From the NCBI GenBank assembly GCA_050741975.1, contig JBOGET010000088.1, forward strand, positions 1,465-65,464: 64,000 bases of DNA, read 5' to 3'. A model generated the notes under the pieces. The model worked only from the letters and a program-made list of their open reading frames with translations, did no database searches and had not been told where the DNA came from. The position numbers and the translations under genes are program-made. Origin of the DNA: Acidimicrobiia bacterium (GTDB taxonomy: Bacteria; Actinomycetota; Acidimicrobiia; Spongiisociales; ZC4RG35). Below are positions 2,382-40,063 of the stretch, piece by piece (positions within the stretch are counted from its first letter, which is position 1; the number at the start of each line of letters is the position of its first letter).

Positions 2382-3380
2382 ATGCGGCACTTTCTGAACA
2401 CCTTCGAGTGGACCACGCCGGAGCTCCAGTCGATGGTCGACGACGCCCGCCGCTTCAAGGCCTCGCCGTACGGGGACGCCCTCCAAGGCAAGACCATTGC
2501 CCTTCTCTTCCTCAACAACTCACTGCGGACCCGCACCTCATTCGATGTCGGAGCCCGTCATCTCGGTGGGCACGCCGTGGTCCTCTCCCCCTCCGGCGGG
2601 ATATGGCCTCTCGAGTTCGAGGAGGGTGCGGTCATGCTCGACGACGCCGAGGAGCATGTGAAGGAAGCAGCCAAAGTCCTCTCCCGCTACTGCGACCTGA
2701 TCGGGATCCGTGCCTTCCCCGAGTTCGAGAGCTGGGAAGAGGATCGGAAGGACAAGATCCTCCAGGGTTTCGCCACCCATTCCGAGGTCCCCGTGATCAA
2801 CATGGAGACGATCACCCACCCCTGTCAGGAGATGGCCCACATCATGGCTCTCCAGGAGCGGCTGGGCTCCCTCGAGGGAAAGCGCTATCTCCTCACCTGG
2901 AGCTATCACCCCAAACCACTCAACACCGCCGTGGCGAACTCCGCCGTCGTCATCGCCGCCAAGTTCGGCATGGACGTCACCCTGCTCTGCCCCACCGAGG
3001 ATTACATCCTCGACGAGCGCTACGTCAACATCGCCACCCGCGACGCGGGGGCCAACGGTCGCAGCCTCACCATCACCCACGACATCGAGACCGCCTACGA
3101 CAGCGCCGACGTCGTCTACGTCAAGAGCTGGGGTGCGCTCGCCTACTTCGGACGCTGGGACGAGGAGAAGCCGATCCGCGACAAGTACCAGGACTTCATC
3201 GTCGACTCGCAGAAGATGGCGCTGACCAACGACGCCCTGGTCAGTCACTGCCTGCCGATGCGGCGCAACGTGATCATGACCGATGAGGTGTTCGACGGCC
3301 CGAGCTGCATCGCCTATGACGAAGCGGAGAACCGGCTCCACGTGCAGAAGGCGATCATGACCAGGCTGGTTGGGCAATGA
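2382..3380 (+). CDS. argF': N-acetylornithine (or N-succinylornithine) carbamoyltransferase-type transcarbamylase
   Basis: Motifs NNSLRTRTSF (instead of the OTCase STRTR), HPCQEMAHIMAL, VYVKSWGA (instead of the OTCase SMG motif) and SHCLPMRRN. ATG at 2382 lies inside the longer track ORF 2211..3380. Confidence 0.75.
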   Translation: MRHFLNTFEWTTPELQSMVDDARRFKASPYGDALQGKTIALLFLNNSLRTRTSFDVGARHLGGHAVVLSPSGGIWPLEFEEGAVMLDDAEEHVKEAAKVLSRYCDLIGIRAFPEFESWEEDRKDKILQGFATHSEVPVINMETITHPCQEMAHIMALQERLGSLEGKRYLLTWSYHPKPLNTAVANSAVVIAAKFGMDVTLLCPTEDYILDERYVNIATRDAGANGRSLTITHDIETAYDSADVVYVKSWGALAYFGRWDEEKPIRDKYQDFIVDSQKMALTNDALVSHCLPMRRNVIMTDEVFDGPSCIAYDEAENRLHVQKAIMTRLVGQ

Positions 3381-4726
3381 ACCAGGGCAGGGTGCCGCCC
3401 ACCCCCAACCGGGACGTCCGTCAGACCATCGTCCATCTCCTCTCCAACATGAGTGACGGCAAGGAGATCCGGTCCTATCTGCAGAGGTTCTCGGAGGTCG
3501 ACCATTCCCGGTTCGCCGTCATCAAGATCGGCGGCGCCATCCTTCGTGATCATCTCGACGAGACCGCTGCCGCCCTCGCCTTCCTCCATACCGTCGGTCT
3601 GACCCCGATCGTGATCCACGGCGGAGGGCCACAACTCGACAGGCTCCTGGCCGAGCGCCGGATCGAGACGCAGAGAGTCGACGGGCTGCGTGTGACCCAT
3701 CCCGATGTCCTCGATGCGGCACGGGACACCTTCATCGAGCAGAACATCCTCCTCGTCGAGGCGATCCGGGAGCAGGGGGTCTCCGCCCACGGGCTCACCG
3801 CCGGTGCGTTCGAGGCCGACTATGTGGATCGGGGCAAGTACGGGCTGGTCGGGGAGCCGACCGAGGTGCACCTCGCCCTGATCCGGTCCATCGTCGCCTC
3901 CGGGGCGATCCCCATCCTCACCTGTCTCGGCGTGGCCCCCGGCGGGCAGATCGTCAACATGAACGCCGACTCGGCCACCAGGGCCCTGGTCCGTGCGGTG
4001 CAGCCGATGAAGATCATCTTCCTCGTCGACGTCGGAGGTCTGCTCGGCGAGGATGGGAAGCCGATCGAGTCGATCAACCTCGCCTCCGACTACGAGGAAC
4101 TGATGGCCCAGGACTGGGTCCACTCCGGGATGCGGCTCAAACTCGCCGAGATCAAGCGTCTCCTCGACGACACGCCCCTCTCCACGTCGGTCTCGATCAC
4201 CACCCCCTCGGGTCTGGTCAAGGAGCTCTTCACCCATGGTGGCTCCGGCACCCTGGTGCGGAGGGGGGAGCTGATCAACCGGGAGACGGACAAAGGCGCT
4301 CTCGACGAGGGACAGGTGGTCAAGCTGGTCGAGGAGGCGTTCGGCATGACCCTGAAGGACGGGTGGTGGCAGCTGCTCAGCCTGGAGAGCGCCTATCTCT
4401 CCGAGAGTCTCCGTGCCGGTGCCGTGATGGCGAAGGTCGACGACTTCGCCTACCTGGACAAGTTCGCCATCCTCGAAGATGCCCGGGGCGAAGGCCTGGC
4501 CCGGACGGTGTGGGCCCGTCTCGTCGCCGACCATCCCGTCCTCTACTGGCGCTCCCGGACCGAGAACGGCTTCAACGCCTTCTACGTGGAAGAGGCCGAC
4601 GGGTCGGTGAAGCGAGGGCCATGGACCATCTTCTGGAAGGGCGAGACCGATTTCGCCCGTATCGCCCCAAGGGTGGAGATCATCGCCGCTATCCCACCCT
4701 CGTTCGTCGGAGACGACGATGAGTGA
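3377..4726 (+). CDS. argAB: Bifunctional N-acetylglutamate synthase/kinase (amino-acid kinase domain plus vertebrate-like NAT domain)
   Basis: The N-terminal AAK fold has FAVIKIGGAIL ... PIVIHGGGPQLD. The C-terminal ~150 aa (AYLDKFAILEDARGEGLARTVWARL ... LYWRSRTENGFNAFY) resemble the NAGS-type acetyltransferase domain. ATGA overlap with the upstream gene. Confidence 0.75.
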   Translation: MNQGRVPPTPNRDVRQTIVHLLSNMSDGKEIRSYLQRFSEVDHSRFAVIKIGGAILRDHLDETAAALAFLHTVGLTPIVIHGGGPQLDRLLAERRIETQRVDGLRVTHPDVLDAARDTFIEQNILLVEAIREQGVSAHGLTAGAFEADYVDRGKYGLVGEPTEVHLALIRSIVASGAIPILTCLGVAPGGQIVNMNADSATRALVRAVQPMKIIFLVDVGGLLGEDGKPIESINLASDYEELMAQDWVHSGMRLKLAEIKRLLDDTPLSTSVSITTPSGLVKELFTHGGSGTLVRRGELINRETDKGALDEGQVVKLVEEAFGMTLKDGWWQLLSLESAYLSESLRAGAVMAKVDDFAYLDKFAILEDARGEGLARTVWARLVADHPVLYWRSRTENGFNAFYVEEADGSVKRGPWTIFWKGETDFARIAPRVEIIAAIPPSFVGDDDE

Positions 4727-5753: not shown

Positions 5754-5826
5754 GCTCTCGGGCGGGCAGCCCGGGTGCCGACGCCGCACATCGTCAGCGC
5801 TCCTAACGACGCCACCGCCCGAGAGC
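5754..5826 (+). promoter_or_regulatory. Structured 5' leader element (12-bp perfect long-range helix)
   Basis: GCTCTCGGGCGG (5754-5765) is the exact reverse complement of CCGCCCGAGAGC (5815-5826). It lies between the candidate promoter and the SD/ATG at 5886. Confidence 0.35.
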
Positions 5827-5885
5827 GAGACCGTTCCCGGCGTCACGAGAACTCGTTTTCTGATCTTCAAAGGAGCAAAGAGCAC

Positions 5886-33325: not shown

Positions 33326-33685
33326 CTAGAAGTTGCCACCAAATGTCAGTATTCCCCGGATGGAAAGCCCCATGGTGAACAAGAGGAGCAGCCCGTAGTA
33401 GAGGGTGGGGCGTTTTCGGAGCTGGGCGCGATAGACGTAGGCAAAGGTGAAGGTCACCGCGATCAGGACACCGTAGAACACATGCTGGTTACCCGGGTCG
33501 ACCCCGCCGCTCGCCACGATGACCCCGACCAGGATCTGAATGAGTAGAGCGACGATCGCCACCCCCACCCCGTAATAGAAGGCCTTGGGGGGGACTTGTC
33601 GGTTCTTGACGAGCACGCCCCAGAGCCCGACGACACCGCTGATGGTGGCGGCGATGTAGCCCCAGGTCGTGTGGAAGTCGCTCAA
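33326..33685 (-). CDS. Small 4-TM membrane protein, unknown function
   Basis: Four hydrophobic segments and good GC3 bias. Confidence 0.5.
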   Translation of the reverse strand: MSDFHTTWGYIAATISGVVGLWGVLVKNRQVPPKAFYYGVGVAIVALLIQILVGVIVASGGVDPGNQHVFYGVLIAVTFTFAYVYRAQLRKRPTLYYGLLLLFTMGLSIRGILTFGGNF

Positions 33686-34038: not shown

Positions 34039-34050
34039 GAAGCTCCACCG

Positions 34051-34553
34051 GTGCGACGACGCCGGTGGATAGCGTTGTCACATGGTCGACGGCGGTCCTC
34101 GACTTGGGGCGGACCACAACCCGGCGCGATGGCTGGTCGAGAGGATCGGCCGTCGAGGTTGGTCGCCTGCTCGCTTCACATCACGACGCCCGACCGGGTC
34201 TGGTTCTGCGTATGGGAAGGCTTCGGGTCCCGGACAATCCGACTGCTGGCGGCGGCACTGTCCGGCTTTCCAACCGGGGAATACCACCTTTTCCTGGGCC
34301 GATTGGAGGACCTCGGCGAATCGTTCGCAGTCCCACCTTTATGGCAGTCGGCCAACCCGTGGTGGCCCGACGACCAGGCCTGGTGAGTGGCCACCGAGAT
34401 CGACCTCGCATCGACCTACCTCGGCGGCAGCGAGGAGTGCATCCGATCCGTCGCGGGGCCTCCCCAGCTCGGACGCTGCCCATCCTGATCACCGACGGGA
34501 TCATCCACGACAGCGACCAAACGAATCCGGCCCCACCGGGTCCCCCCCACTGA
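34051..34553 (+). pseudogene. Disrupted conserved hypothetical gene (in-frame TGA plus probable frameshifts)
   Basis: The protein-like text ...TTPDRVWFCVWEGFG...GEYHLFLGRLEDLGE...PLWQSANPWWPDDQAW is cut by TGA 34384-34386. It continues in the same frame as VATEIDLASTYLGGSEECI. N- and C-terminal parts appear to continue in other frames. Confidence 0.4.
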
Positions 34554-34626
34554 GGAATGAGAACGCTCGCGTGCACAACCGATGGGTCTGCCTATGGTGG
34601 AAGAGAAGCCCACCAAGGAGCCGGCA

Positions 34627-34917
34627 ATGCTCGAAGTTTCCGAGAAAGCCGCGGCGGCGCTGGAGGATGTCCGTCGCAATGAGGGGATCCCCGACTCCCA
34701 TGGCACCCGATTGACCGTCGGCCAGCAGCCCGGAGGCGACCTCGTCGTTCGACTCGAGTTCGTGGAGACTCCGGACGAGGCGGACCAGGTCACCGAGCAG
34801 TCAGGGACCGAGGTCTATATCGACCCCGAGTTGGCAGAGCCGCTGTCCTCGGCGGTCATGGACGTCACCAGAGGCGACGAGGGTGTGTCATTCGTCTTTC
34901 GTCCCCAGGACAACTAG
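34627..34917 (+). CDS. HesB/IscA-fold-like small protein lacking the cysteine ligands
   Basis: AAGGAG lies 6 nt upstream of ATG 34627. MLEVSEKAAAALEDV...GTRLTV...VYIDPELAEPL pattern with no Cys present. Confidence 0.5.
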   Translation: MLEVSEKAAAALEDVRRNEGIPDSHGTRLTVGQQPGGDLVVRLEFVETPDEADQVTEQSGTEVYIDPELAEPLSSAVMDVTRGDEGVSFVFRPQDN

Positions 34918-36552: not shown

Positions 36553-37163
36553 CAGGCACCCCCGAGCAGCTTCCGCTTCTCCGCTTCGAACTCGCTGTCG
36601 GTGAGCTTTCCCTCGTCGTGGAGCCGGGACAGGGTGGCCAGCTGCGAGGCCGCGCTCTCGGATGCGACCGACCCGCCGCCCGACTCCAGTTTCATCTGAC
36701 GCTCTTCTCTCACCTCATAGATCAATGACTGCACCGTCTCCGGATCCGGGATGTCGCTGTAGAGCGATTGACCGTGAGTTCCGGCCGACTCGATGACGAG
36801 GTCACCTGTGCCGAGGATCCGCTCGATGGCAGTCTGCTTGAAGGCGACGTCGTTGATCACCTCGAGCGGGATCTCCTTGCCCTGCTTCGAGATCAGCCCG
36901 GCCCTGTAAATCAGCCTCTCGGAGGTGATCACGTGCAACGAGGTCCACCAACGGATGAACTGTGCGATCACGACGATGAACCAGGCAACGATCAATCCCA
37001 GGATCACCCAACCTCCCCAGCTGAGCCCCTGGATGGCGATCAGGATGATGAGCACCAGAACGAGGATGGACAGCACCCCTTCCTTGGCGATCCGCGACCA
37101 GTGGGGTCGAAACTGGCTTCTGATCACCTCGCCGGGGCTGAGCAATTTCTCTGGGTAGCGCAT
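36552..37163 (-). CDS. Membrane bPH (YdbS/YdbT-like) domain protein with C-terminal SHOCT motif
   Basis: Two TM helices followed by HVITSERLIYRAGLISKQGKEIPL...GDLVIESAG. The C-terminus is LATLSRLHDEGKLTDSEFEAEKRKLL. The stop overlaps the fadD start. Confidence 0.7.
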   Translation of the reverse strand: MRYPEKLLSPGEVIRSQFRPHWSRIAKEGVLSILVLVLIILIAIQGLSWGGWVILGLIVAWFIVVIAQFIRWWTSLHVITSERLIYRAGLISKQGKEIPLEVINDVAFKQTAIERILGTGDLVIESAGTHGQSLYSDIPDPETVQSLIYEVREERQMKLESGGGSVASESAASQLATLSRLHDEGKLTDSEFEAEKRKLLGGA

Positions 37164-37360
37164 GACCCCAGGCTACCGATCGGGTTTCTCCCCTGGCTGG
37201 ACGAGACACCAGATCCTCGACACCAACCGGCGTCGGCCCAACCCGCGGCGCAACCCCCCGGCCGACCGGCGTCTGGTTGCCCGAGGCGGTGAAAGCAGGA
37301 AGAACCGTTCTCGTGTCCACGACTGAGGGTGGGCCTCGGGCAAAGTCGCCCGGCAGAGAA

Positions 37361-37415
37361 GCGAGAAAGTCCCGAGGGAGCCTTGGCCGAAGCCTCAACC
37401 CTCTCGGGACTCTCG
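37361..37415. repeat. 55-nt imperfect palindromic repeat, copy 1
   Basis: GCGAGAAAGTCCCGAGGGAGCCTTGGCCGAAGCCTCAACCCTCTCGGGACTCTCG is ~80% identical by eye to copy 2 at 38928-38983. Confidence 0.7.
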
Positions 37416-37769
37416 TCCATTCGGTGTCGGGCCGGGGACCCAACTCCGAGTGGAGTTTCCTGCCAGTGGCCGAAGCCTCTGGCTGGGTGCGATCCAAAGA
37501 TCGCGTCTCCTCGTCTCCGAGAAGATCTTGCGAGTCGTGAGACCCGCCGCCCGGAGACCGCTCGACGATCCCGAAGGATCCCCGTCCGGCCTTCCGACCG
37601 CCCCTAAAGCCCTCGGTTTCCCAGTGGCTCCGGGTAACCCGCACCGTGGCCTCGGCGTGGCTCTCACCACTCCGCACCTCTCGGTTCAGGCCCGCCGCCG
37701 GGTTTCCCCTGCGGCGTGCCGGAAACGTAGACCGCCGCCCTGATGCAGGCAACTCCACGGCTCGATTGT

Positions 37770-37798
37770 TTTTCGCGATTCGTGATTCCGTTTTCGCG
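37770..37798. promoter_or_regulatory. Pair of TTTTCGCG direct repeats (21-nt period), ~65 nt upstream of the methyltransferase pseudogene
   Basis: TTTTCGCG at 37770-37777 and 37791-37798. The same arrangement recurs at 39129-39156. Confidence 0.35.
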
Positions 37799-37862
37799 AG
37801 CTGGTCGCGGCCGGTTCCCTGATGAGTTCTGGCACCTCACCCGTGACCGAAAAGGGGGTCGC

Positions 37863-38911
37863 ATGTCGGGCACAGCCGAGGAGTTCGCCGATCGAATGCT
37901 TGCATCCGCGTTGGGCACCGTGGAGATCTACTCGATCCACATAGGCGACAGGCTGGGGTTCTATCGAGCCCTGGCCGCCGGAGGCAAGACGAGCAGGAGC
38001 CTCGCCGCAGAGACCGGTGTGGACGAGCGATAAGTCCGGGAGTGGCTGGAGCAGCAGGCCACCTACGGGATCCTCGACGTGGACCTGACCGCCGATGACC
38101 CCGTGTTCACACTCCCCCGACGCCCACCGTGAGGTCCTGACCGACGAGCTGAACGGGTCCTATCTCGCCCCACTCGCCCGGATGTTCACCACCGCAGGCG
38201 AGAACATGGCCCCTTCTCCTCGATGCTTATCGATCGGGCGGTGGGGTGTCCTGGGATGTCTTCGGCCAGGACATGAGAGAGAACCAGGCGGACATGAACC
38301 GTCCCTTCTTCCAGAACGACCTCGCCGACGTCTTCACAGGTCTCGGGCCGGTGAACGATCACCTCTCTCGACCCGGCGCCCGGGTGGCCGACGTGGGCTG
38401 TGGCGCCGGCTGGTCGACACTGGCCTTGGCCCGGGCCTATCCCCAGGCGACGTTCCGCGGCTTCGACATCGACGTTCCGTCGATCGACATGGCTCTTCAG
38501 AACACGATCGATGCCGGGTTTGGTGATCGGGTGACCTTCAGCACCGACGACGTCGTCACCCGCTCGGGTGGCGACCAATAAGACGTGCTGTTGGCCTTGG
38601 AGTGCATCCACGACATGGCGCAGCCGGTCCAGGTGTTGGCGGCGATGCGGAGAATGGTCAAGGACGACGGGGTCGTCATGATCATGGACGAGGCCGTCGG
38701 TGACGCGTTTACCGGCACGGGCGACGACATCGAGAAGCTGATGTATGGGTTCAGCATCCTGATCTGTCTCCCCGACGGTCTCTCCTCCCAGCCCTCGGTG
38801 GGGACGGGGACCGTGATGCGCCCCTCCACCCTCCGCTCCTACGCCGAGGAGGCCGGGTTCACCGGGTTCCGCTCGGTCGGGGAGGCCGGTTTCTTCAGGT
38901 CTACGAGCTGA
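37863..38911 (+). pseudogene. Class I SAM-dependent methyltransferase, inactivated (2 nonsense codons, 2 frameshifts)
   Basis: Pieces in three frames assemble into one MTase: ...TGVDER*VREWLEQQ..., ...DAHREVLTDELNGSYLAPLARMF..., ...VADVGCGAGWSTLALA...GGDQ*DVLLALECIHDM...MIMDE... TAA at 38031 and 38579; extra C in the C-runs 38114-38118 and 38210-38213. Confidence 0.8.
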
Positions 38912-38927
38912 GGCCCTAGCGCCAAAC

Positions 38928-38983
38928 GCGAGAGACCCCGAGAAAGCTTTGGCCGAAGCCGCAGCCCTCTCGGGGCTCTCAGT
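38928..38983. repeat. 55-nt imperfect palindromic repeat, copy 2
   Basis: GCGAGAGACCCCGAGAAAGCTTTGGCCGAAGCCGCAGCCCTCTCGGGGCTCTCAG, 17 nt after the pseudogene stop. Confidence 0.7.
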
Positions 38984-39128
38984 GCCACTCGACCGGGAAA
39001 GCGGGCCCCCAGTCAGGTGGCGATCCGGAGGGACCGAAGTCACTCCTTCCCCGACCCGGGCGAACCCGTGCCGGTAAGGGAAAGGTACGAGAGAACCGCT
39101 TGGAGCGTCAAGCCAAACCGGCGCCTAG

Positions 39129-39156
39129 TTTTCGCGGATTAGCTGATCTTTTCGCG
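39129..39156. promoter_or_regulatory. Pair of TTTTCGCG direct repeats (20-nt period) upstream of the nuclease gene
   Basis: TTTTCGCG at 39129-39136 and 39149-39156. Confidence 0.35.
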
Positions 39157-39268
39157 TTTACTCCCGCACCCCATGCAAGCCGCCGCCGCCGAGTGTGGCT
39201 CCGGCGTCGACCGACCTCACCGGGCGATCTCCCCATTCCTGTCACACCCCCGTCTTACACTCGGCTCG

Positions 39269-40063
39269 GTGACCGTCGAATTGGAACTGGCCCCACTCGA
39301 GACCCTGTCTCCCAGCCGGGCAGGGGACTTCAAGACCTGCCCCCAGTTGTTCAAGTTCAGGGCGATCGACCGTCTCAGCGAGCCGCCCTCGGTGTACCAG
39401 GCCCGGGGCACCACCGCCCATTTGGCACTGCAGCGGCTCTTCGACCACCCCTCCGGCGCTCGTTCGCCGGAGCTTCTCTACGACCTGTTCCGTGAGGCGT
39501 GGACCGAGCTTCGCGGCAGTGAGGAGTTCGAGGACCTGTTCGGGGACACCGACGAGGAGCGCCAATGGGGGGTGGAGTCGCTCGAGCTGCTCTCCAACTA
39601 CTTCAGCATCGAGGATCCCACCGGTTTCGACCCGGTCGACCGGGAGCTCGACATGGTGGAGGATCTCGACGGGATCATCGTCCGTGGCATCCTCGACCGG
39701 ATCGACCGCGACGGCGACGGTCGGCTGATCATCACCGACTACAAGACCGGCAAGGCACCACCGGAGCGATTCGCCCTCCCCGCCTTCTTCGCCTTGAAGA
39801 TCTATGCGCTCCTCATCCGCCGTCGCACCGGTGAGACCCCCAAGGAGCTTCGTCTCCTCTATCTGAGCGGACCGACCCTCTACCGTCTCGACATCGACGA
39901 CCGTCAGCTCGACGCCATGGACACCCAGCTGCGCGCCCTGTGGAATGCGATAGATCGCGCCCTGGCCACCCAGACCTTCCCCACCCGACCGGGCACCCTG
40001 TGCAACTGGTGCTCCTTCCAGGAGATCTGCCCCGCTTTCGTCCAAGACGACAGGGACGATTAA
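39269..40063 (+). CDS. PD-(D/E)XK nuclease, RecB/Cas4-like with C-terminal Cys cluster
   Basis: N-terminal Cys (FKTCPQLFKF), nuclease core GILDRID...LIITDYKTGK and C-terminal CNWCSFQEICP. GTG start at 39269 is uncertain (the track ORF begins at 39173). Confidence 0.75.
   Translation: MTVELELAPLETLSPSRAGDFKTCPQLFKFRAIDRLSEPPSVYQARGTTAHLALQRLFDHPSGARSPELLYDLFREAWTELRGSEEFEDLFGDTDEERQWGVESLELLSNYFSIEDPTGFDPVDRELDMVEDLDGIIVRGILDRIDRDGDGRLIITDYKTGKAPPERFALPAFFALKIYALLIRRRTGETPKELRLLYLSGPTLYRLDIDDRQLDAMDTQLRALWNAIDRALATQTFPTRPGTLCNWCSFQEICPAFVQDDRDD

Follow-up and report, generated by a model that had tools for sequence, protein, structure and literature searches.

A probable pair of genes for structured noncoding RNAs upstream of a PH/SHOCT gene in uncultured soil Acidimicrobiia

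A 64,000-nucleotide stretch of DNA from an Acidimicrobiia bacterium, referred to here as the window, very probably carries two autonomous minus-strand genes for structured noncoding RNAs, namely RNA-1 of about 365 nt with its own promoter and RNA-2, a paralogue of 154 nt located 1.2 kb upstream of RNA-1. This gene family of structured RNAs from uncultured soil Acidimicrobiia is real and has apparently not been described before. An earlier note on this DNA had proposed a leftward-transcribed structured RNA in positions 37164-37862, which would be either an independent noncoding RNA or else a very long leader for PH/SHOCT-fadD as an operon; RNA-2 at 38922-39075 had been overlooked. The coordinates of all features are given in Table 1.

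Table 1. Features of the RNA-1 and RNA-2 genes and of the adjoining spacer in the window; transcript ends, promoters and terminators are predicted.
Feature	Position	Strand	Details
RNA-1 upstream boxes	37770-37798	minus	two CGCGAAAA boxes, about -60/-53 and -81/-74 relative to the predicted start
RNA-1 promoter	37724-37752	minus	-35 TTGCCT 37752-37747, 17-nt spacer, -10 TACGTT 37729-37724
RNA-1 predicted transcript	about 37717 to about 37355	minus	about 365 nt; ends predicted from promoter geometry and terminator
RNA-1 P1	37716-37693	minus	GAAA loop
RNA-1 P2	37690-37638	minus	GAGA loop
RNA-1 P3	37634-37603	minus	GAAA loop
RNA-1 P4	37600-37548	minus	UUCG loop
RNA-1 P5	37547-37530	minus	
RNA-1 P6	37524-37507	minus	GAGA loop
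RNA-1 P7	37504-37489	minus	UUUG loop here, UUCG in relatives
RNA-1 P8	37483-37462	minus	UUCG loop
RNA-1 P9	37454-37416	minus	invariant; CCC loop
RNA-1 P10	37415-37362	minus	putative terminator; UUCG loop
RNA-1 3′ domain (P8-P9-P10)	37357-37487	minus	module common to RNA-1 and RNA-2
RNA-1 terminal hairpin	37362-37415	minus	long, GC-rich, conserved; followed by a short interrupted U tract
Spacer and PH/SHOCT promoter	37164-37354	minus	-10 TAGCCT 37175-37170; the ATG (37163) follows after 6 nt
RNA-2 promoter module	39082-39156	minus	-35 TTGACG 39111-39106, -10 TACCTT 39087-39082
RNA-2 upstream boxes	39156-39149 and 39136-39129	minus	two CGCGAAAA boxes
RNA-2 predicted transcript	about 39075 to about 38922	minus	about 154 nt; ends predicted
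RNA-2 5′ hairpin	39074-39051	minus	UUCG loop
RNA-2 second hairpin	39050-39022	minus	UUCG loop
RNA-2 third hairpin	39021-38984	minus	C-rich loop
RNA-2 terminator hairpin (putative)	38983-38926	minus	UUCG loop

Conserved structure, strand and paralogy

Folding of the alignments with RNAalifold resolved RNA-1 into ten consecutive hairpins with GNRA or UUCG loops, the last being a long conserved 3′ hairpin, and RNA-2 into four hairpins. The six hairpins singled out in the earlier note (37385-37394, 37468-37477, 37567-37580, 37489-37504, 37694-37715 and 37442-37457) all fall in helices that are conserved in relatives. Its description of the entire 699-nt stretch as structured holds for 37355-37717, with a folding z-score of −8.0 on the minus strand for 37357-37717 alone, but not for the 188-nt spacer at 37164-37351, which is not unusually structured (z = −0.24) and in which conservation is limited to the motif GATCGGTAGCCT-N6-ATG. 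For 37164-37862 as a whole the z-score was −6.9 on the minus strand versus −3.3 on the plus strand, and for RNA-2 it was −4.3. The reported strand asymmetry of the tetraloops was likewise borne out. On the minus strand of RNA-1 and RNA-2 together (523 nt) 6 stems are UUCG-capped and 9 are GNRA-capped, where the rest of the window would lead one to expect 0.12 (P~3e-9) and 0.96 (P~8e-7), respectively, and the plus strand of the same intervals has no UUCG-capped and a single GNRA-capped stem.

Searching the regions upstream of PH orthologues by BLASTN with the minus strand gave two conserved blocks, window positions 37778-37359 and 39160-38925, between which the methyltransferase pseudogene is not generally conserved. 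RNA-1 is 69-90% identical in 18 relatives and RNA-2 75-96% identical in 17, compared with a nucleotide identity of 65-82% for the PH gene of those relatives, and RNA-1 is better conserved than the adjacent PH gene in 16 of the 18. Between lineages the hairpins of RNA-1 are gained or lost whole while adjacent hairpins are undisturbed, and lineage-specific insertions in the alignment consist of entire additional hairpins. Both RNAs close with a long GC-rich hairpin of almost unchanging sequence, in RNA-1 across 24 sequences, and a short U-rich tail comes after it.

The check for conservation and covariation in relatives that the earlier note had called for came out positive. The 116 predicted pairs of RNA-1 are paired in 96.3% of the alignment cells and the 56 pairs of RNA-2 in 98.3%. 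Compensatory changes were found at 23 of the 116 pairs of RNA-1, against 2-8 in controls with the partners slid by 1-3 columns, and at 8 of the 56 pairs of RNA-2, against 1-5 in the slid controls, which is evidence at the level of helices, the alignments holding about 20 sequences in two main clades and phylogeny confounding single-pair statistics. None of 500 shuffles reached the observed covariation values. An all-against-all comparison of columns for long-range or pseudoknotted pairs was uninformative, as hundreds of unrelated column pairs co-vary because of the two-clade phylogeny. In the partition function of the alignments, pairs with p>0.5 span at most 59 nt in RNA-1 and 55 nt in RNA-2, and the 5′ and 3′ ends of each RNA are not paired with each other; multi-stem junctions and long-range helices were not detected, only local hairpins.

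The minus strand is fixed for both RNAs by the excess of G·U over A·C cells at paired positions (218:14 in RNA-1 and 161:1 in RNA-2), in agreement with the leftward direction first suggested from the loops. The claim that no protein is encoded also held: no six-frame ORF of 37164-37862 has a Pfam match, substitutions show no codon periodicity in either RNA (p=0.91 and 0.96, versus p=3e-18 in the PH gene as control), and indels are mostly not multiples of three. Both genes thus have a covarying structure on one strand and are non-coding, as a stand-alone structured small RNA gene should be.

RNA-2 is a paralogue of the 3′ domain of RNA-1. A covariance model of this domain (R1; P8-P10, 129 positions) scores 146.5 bits on RNA-1 and, over all 129 positions, 68.1 bits on RNA-2 in the window, versus 26-27 bits on the opposite strand. 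Across the loci the model gives 91-148 bits for RNA-1 and 15-30 bits for the reverse strand, and at full model length 54-75 bits for RNA-2 in the window and the 19 loci in which RNA-2 lies fully inside the fetched contig. Since the match to RNA-2 runs over the full length of the model, RNA-2 consists of one 5′ hairpin and a copy of the RNA-1 3′ domain. The 64-kb window, like every locus with both genes, has exactly two copies of this 3′ module, in syntenic positions.

That there is no RNA gene here at all, the stretch being decayed coding sequence or a cluster of REP- or MITE-like repeats beside a pseudogene, has next to no probability. It is true that the methyltransferase pseudogene abuts RNA-1, that the core of the RNA-1 terminal hairpin (37371-37414) recurs at 38937-38980 (repeat D16), and that a public 230-aa hypothetical ORF lies over the orthologous region. 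Neither codon periodicity nor a Pfam match was found, however, conservation exceeds that of the neighbouring genes and comes with compensatory changes, and plasmids, phages and viral contigs gave no match. Dispersed REP/MITE repeats were rejected because the 3′ module occurs in exactly two syntenic copies per locus and not in many scattered ones.

The 230-aa protein is called opposite both RNA genes (L050 3731-4423 and L051 3381-4073, both minus), has no Pfam match, and can almost certainly be put down to a spurious reading frame in non-coding DNA of high GC content. That public gene calls place such a hypothetical protein on the strand opposite RNA-1 and RNA-2 is a point for annotation. Three independent metagenome contigs (L026, L028 and L031) start at most 7 nt apart within RNA-1, at window positions 37477-37483. 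These positions are the 5′ edge of the domain common to RNA-1 and RNA-2, a paralogous repeat that probably interrupted the assemblies.

Promoters, transcript ends and neighbouring genes

The promoters, transcript ends and termination of RNA-1 and RNA-2 are predicted from conservation. In both genes two CGCGAAAA boxes 20-21 nt apart are followed by a -35 hexamer, a spacer of 17-18 nt with variable sequence, a -10 hexamer, about 7 nt and then the first hairpin. In the RNA-1 promoter region (37718-37800) the two hexamers are invariant or nearly so among 19 sequences while the spacer varies, and the RNA-2 promoter module, with the same geometry, is conserved in 18 sequences. Invariant hexamers around a variable spacer suggest a promoter, with starts near 37717 for RNA-1 and 39075 for RNA-2. 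The CGCGAAAA sequence occurs 4 times in 64 kb, always at the promoters of RNA-1 and RNA-2, and the double box was found in the 53 fetched loci at these promoters only. A simple scan for consensus promoters and terminators called no minus-strand sites at RNA-1 or RNA-2, so that promoter and terminator are argued from the conservation pattern only; the RNA-1 terminal hairpin went uncalled because its U tract is short. This hairpin is a putative intrinsic terminator and 3′ protective stem.

With this layout RNA-1 would be transcribed from its own sigma-A-type promoter, open with the 5′-end hairpin and end with the very stable conserved 3′ hairpin, which probably terminates transcription. The two in-phase CGCGAAAA boxes may act like an UP element or be bound by a regulator of their own. 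Protection of the 5′ and 3′ ends by hairpins and termination at the conserved hairpin, together with sigma-A promoters bearing A-tract or regulator boxes, would amount to the design of a stable RNA.

The other option of the earlier note, in which RNA-1 would serve PH/SHOCT-fadD as a long structured 5′ leader, a riboswitch or attenuator with the 3′ hairpin as conditional terminator, is highly unlikely. RNA-1 is co-oriented with PH/SHOCT and in many relatives ends 39-117 nt upstream of its start codon. Against a leader, the PH/SHOCT ATG is preceded at 6 nt by the -10-like TAGCCT, and the motif GATCGGTAGCCT-N6-ATG is present in 8 of the 15 spacers compared (window included), with close variants in 5 of the other 7. 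This distance is typical of leaderless actinobacterial mRNAs and points to a leaderless-type promoter of PH/SHOCT's own, which the conserved motif fits; a Shine-Dalgarno sequence, which a read-through mRNA would need, is absent before the ATG. RNA-1 and PH are separated by another gene or by 0.7-1.7 kb of sequence in at least 8 loci, and the genes inserted after the RNAs differ by genome (methyltransferase, DUF222, DUF218, alpha/beta-hydrolase-cyclase and M24 peptidase). RNA-2, with the same 3′ module, is followed on its 3′ side by a convergent gene in the window and by the RNA-1 promoter elsewhere, or is inverted (L052). Finally, the sequence of the terminator stem hardly varies, and the folds of the alignments predicted no conserved alternative pairing. 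A position in a 5′ UTR with fixed orientation and no intervening promoter, as in riboswitches and leaders, is thus not what is seen for RNA-1 and RNA-2. The PH promoter, the variable inserted genes and the inverted RNA-2 argue against a long leader of the PH/SHOCT operon and for two autonomous genes. Of the two options left by the earlier note, it is the independent noncoding RNA that agrees with the conserved promoter of RNA-1 and with modules that are independent of the neighbouring genes.

The methyltransferase pseudogene (window 37863-38911, plus strand) is split into at least 3 ORF pieces: a stop interrupts it at 38031, and it is broken again near 38582. L052 and L053 have intact orthologues of 351 aa, with WHD_Rv2258c and methyltransferase domains, in the same place and orientation. 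In these two loci DUF218 and methyltransferase genes separate RNA-1 from RNA-2, and RNA-2 with its complete promoter module (about 3291-3523, minus) is inverted relative to RNA-1. The stop of the pseudogene and the terminal hairpin of RNA-2, a possible bidirectional terminator, are 11 nt apart.

Further repeats and rearrangements were observed around the two genes. Just downstream of the RNA-1 3′ end the spacer of the window contains an 11-nt perfect inverted repeat (TTGCCCGAGGC at 37277-37287 and GCCTCGGGCAA at 37333-37343) that is missing from relatives. Two GGGGGGCGACCCCCCTGCACCCCCC-type elements between RNA-1 and the PH gene of L052 (about 5755-5790 and 5855-5885) look like a local REP-like repeat. 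PH/SHOCT is tandemly duplicated downstream of RNA-1 in one lineage (L048 5360-6621 and L049 628-1889). Elsewhere in the window, a 34-nt inverted repeat with 79% complementarity (33336-33369 and 34264-34297) brackets about 900 nt, within which 34039-34581 (about 540 nt) has no convincing ORF; 34100-34900 is not conserved in relatives, and the bracketed stretch may be a small insertion. At the window start there is a 147-nt direct repeat of 77% identity (1-147 and 657-803, spacing 656 nt).

Distribution among related loci

The PH/SHOCT protein of the window is 100% identical to a protein from an Acidimicrobiia metagenome-assembled genome, and soil metagenomes contain hundreds of its homologues. 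Altogether 53 loci were compared, 47 fetched via this protein and 6 via three homologues; every locus was obtained through the neighbouring PH/SHOCT gene, and the range and copy number given here apply to these loci. In five distant loci with a PH homologue of 37-39% identity (L012, L013 and L038-L040) the covariance model gave only chance-level matches within coding sequence, and in these the place directly before PH is taken by a protein gene. Neither plasmids and phages, searched with RNA-1 by BLASTN, nor viral contigs, scanned for exact copies of the invariant P9 core, gave a match. The range of RNA-1 and RNA-2, judged from loci fetched via PH/SHOCT, is narrow and confined to one clade of uncultured soil Acidimicrobiia.

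Possible function and comparison with known RNA families

None of the 4227 models of Rfam 15 reached its gathering score anywhere in the window, and at E<=10 the region 36900-39300 gave only chance-level miRNA and sRNA matches of 17-20 bits, against cut-offs of 41-100. Rfam searches of 7 relatives returned nothing on RNA-1 or RNA-2, and ARAGORN called no tRNA or tmRNA gene in the window. The earlier failure to match the stretch to RNase P, tmRNA, SRP RNA, 6S RNA or a riboswitch is consistent with these results. A literature search on noncoding RNAs of Acidimicrobiia found nothing relevant, and to our knowledge essentially nothing is known of the RNA biology of the uncultured soil members.

Long-range pairing folds both 6S RNA, which binds the RNA polymerase holoenzyme and templates pRNA, and Ms1, the RNA polymerase-binding small RNA of actinobacteria, into rods with a central bubble, Ms1 being about 300 nt long with short terminal hairpins. 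As neither sequence nor Rfam searches detect homologues of Ms1 beyond close relatives of mycobacteria (PMC9130861), this architecture was tested directly on RNA-1 and RNA-2. Neither a 5′/3′ closing stem with a large central bubble, as in 6S, nor a rod of about 300 nt with central bubble and short terminal hairpins, as in Ms1, was found, and with no pair of p>0.5 spanning more than 59 nt a rod with a central bubble is not formed. Ms1 is flanked by genes for a HAD-IB hydrolase/phosphoserine phosphatase and an oxidoreductase (PMC9130861); these are absent from the flanks of RNA-1 and RNA-2, where genes for a PD-(D/E)XK nuclease, glutamate dehydrogenase, PH/SHOCT and FadD are found. That the two RNAs are Acidimicrobiia counterparts of 6S/Ms1 which bind RNA polymerase with an unorthodox architecture is therefore improbable in view of the missing rod, the unpaired 5′ and 3′ ends, the different flanks and the lack of an Rfam match to 6S or Ms1 even at E<=10. 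It would nevertheless suit the reported absence of classical 6S from Actinobacteria and the elusiveness of Ms1 homologues (PMC9130861), and an abundant RNA of the housekeeping type would agree with the lengths of 154 and 365 nt, with genes that stand alone, with promoters that have A-tract boxes upstream and with the strong conservation. RNA-1 and RNA-2 resemble Ms1 and 6S in being stand-alone, well-conserved, structured RNAs of 150-370 nt from the same phylum, with their own promoter and terminator (predicted for RNA-1 and RNA-2) and with paralogous pairs in some bacteria. They differ from them in consisting of local hairpins only (maximum span 59 nt), in having no Rfam match and in their synteny.

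A role as base-pairing small RNAs of the 6C or RsaE type, whose invariant C-rich tips would pair with the G-rich ribosome-binding sites of target mRNAs, is unlikely, if less so than a 6S/Ms1 counterpart. Candidates for such pairing are UCCCC (P9 of RNA-1) and CCCGCUUUCCC (RNA-2), and the most invariant segments of both RNAs are indeed C-rich and located at hairpin tips. However, 365 nt of tightly conserved stems with purely structural tetraloops are atypical of a seed-pairing small RNA, and the 6C family gave no match. RNA-1 and RNA-2 share with 6C their origin in Actinomycetota and conserved C-rich hairpin loops, but 6C RNAs are 60-90 nt long with two C-rich loops, whereas here there is one C-rich tip per RNA in a much larger structure.

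Returning to two autonomous structured RNAs, we tentatively favour, at somewhat less than an even chance, that they act in trans as stable, abundant, protein-bound RNAs with the shared 3′ domain as the platform to which the protein binds in both. A second function or a tertiary fold could come from the GNRA-rich extension at the 5′ end of RNA-1. A more far-reaching proposal, rather doubtful as a whole, is that they form a new class of abundant housekeeping-type ribonucleoprotein RNAs restricted to one clade of soil Acidimicrobiia. Their 3′ domain would bind a common protein, either RNA polymerase, in the niche of 6S/Ms1 but with an entirely different architecture, or the adjacent bPH_2/SHOCT membrane protein, by analogy with OLE and OapA; the GNRA-rich 5′ part of RNA-1 would adopt a compact tertiary fold, and both genes would be under a dedicated regulator recognising the CGCGAAAA direct repeats. 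Large, highly conserved structured RNAs without known function are rare in bacteria, and those that have been studied repeatedly gave new biology. The present family offers boundaries, a structure model backed by covariation, a paralogue that delimits a functional 3′ domain and a specific promoter motif, and it comes from a phylum reported to be without classical 6S RNA.

In overall layout the two RNAs are similar to CsrB, RsmY and RsmZ, which are linear arrays of hairpins and have paralogues of unequal length with a common upstream promoter box and terminator. Their loops are GAAA, GAGA, UUCG, UCAC and CCC, in contrast to the many A/GGGA loops of CsrB and RsmZ; a repeated GGA-type loop motif is lacking, and the individual hairpins do not repeat one another. 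With raiA, OLE, ROOL, GOLLD and HEARO, RNA-1 has in common its length, high conservation, many helices with GNRA loops and discovery by comparative genomics. The covariance models of those families do not match, and RNA-1 differs from them in its narrow range and in having neither multi-stem junctions nor long-range helices; like OLE, however, it adjoins the gene of a small membrane protein.
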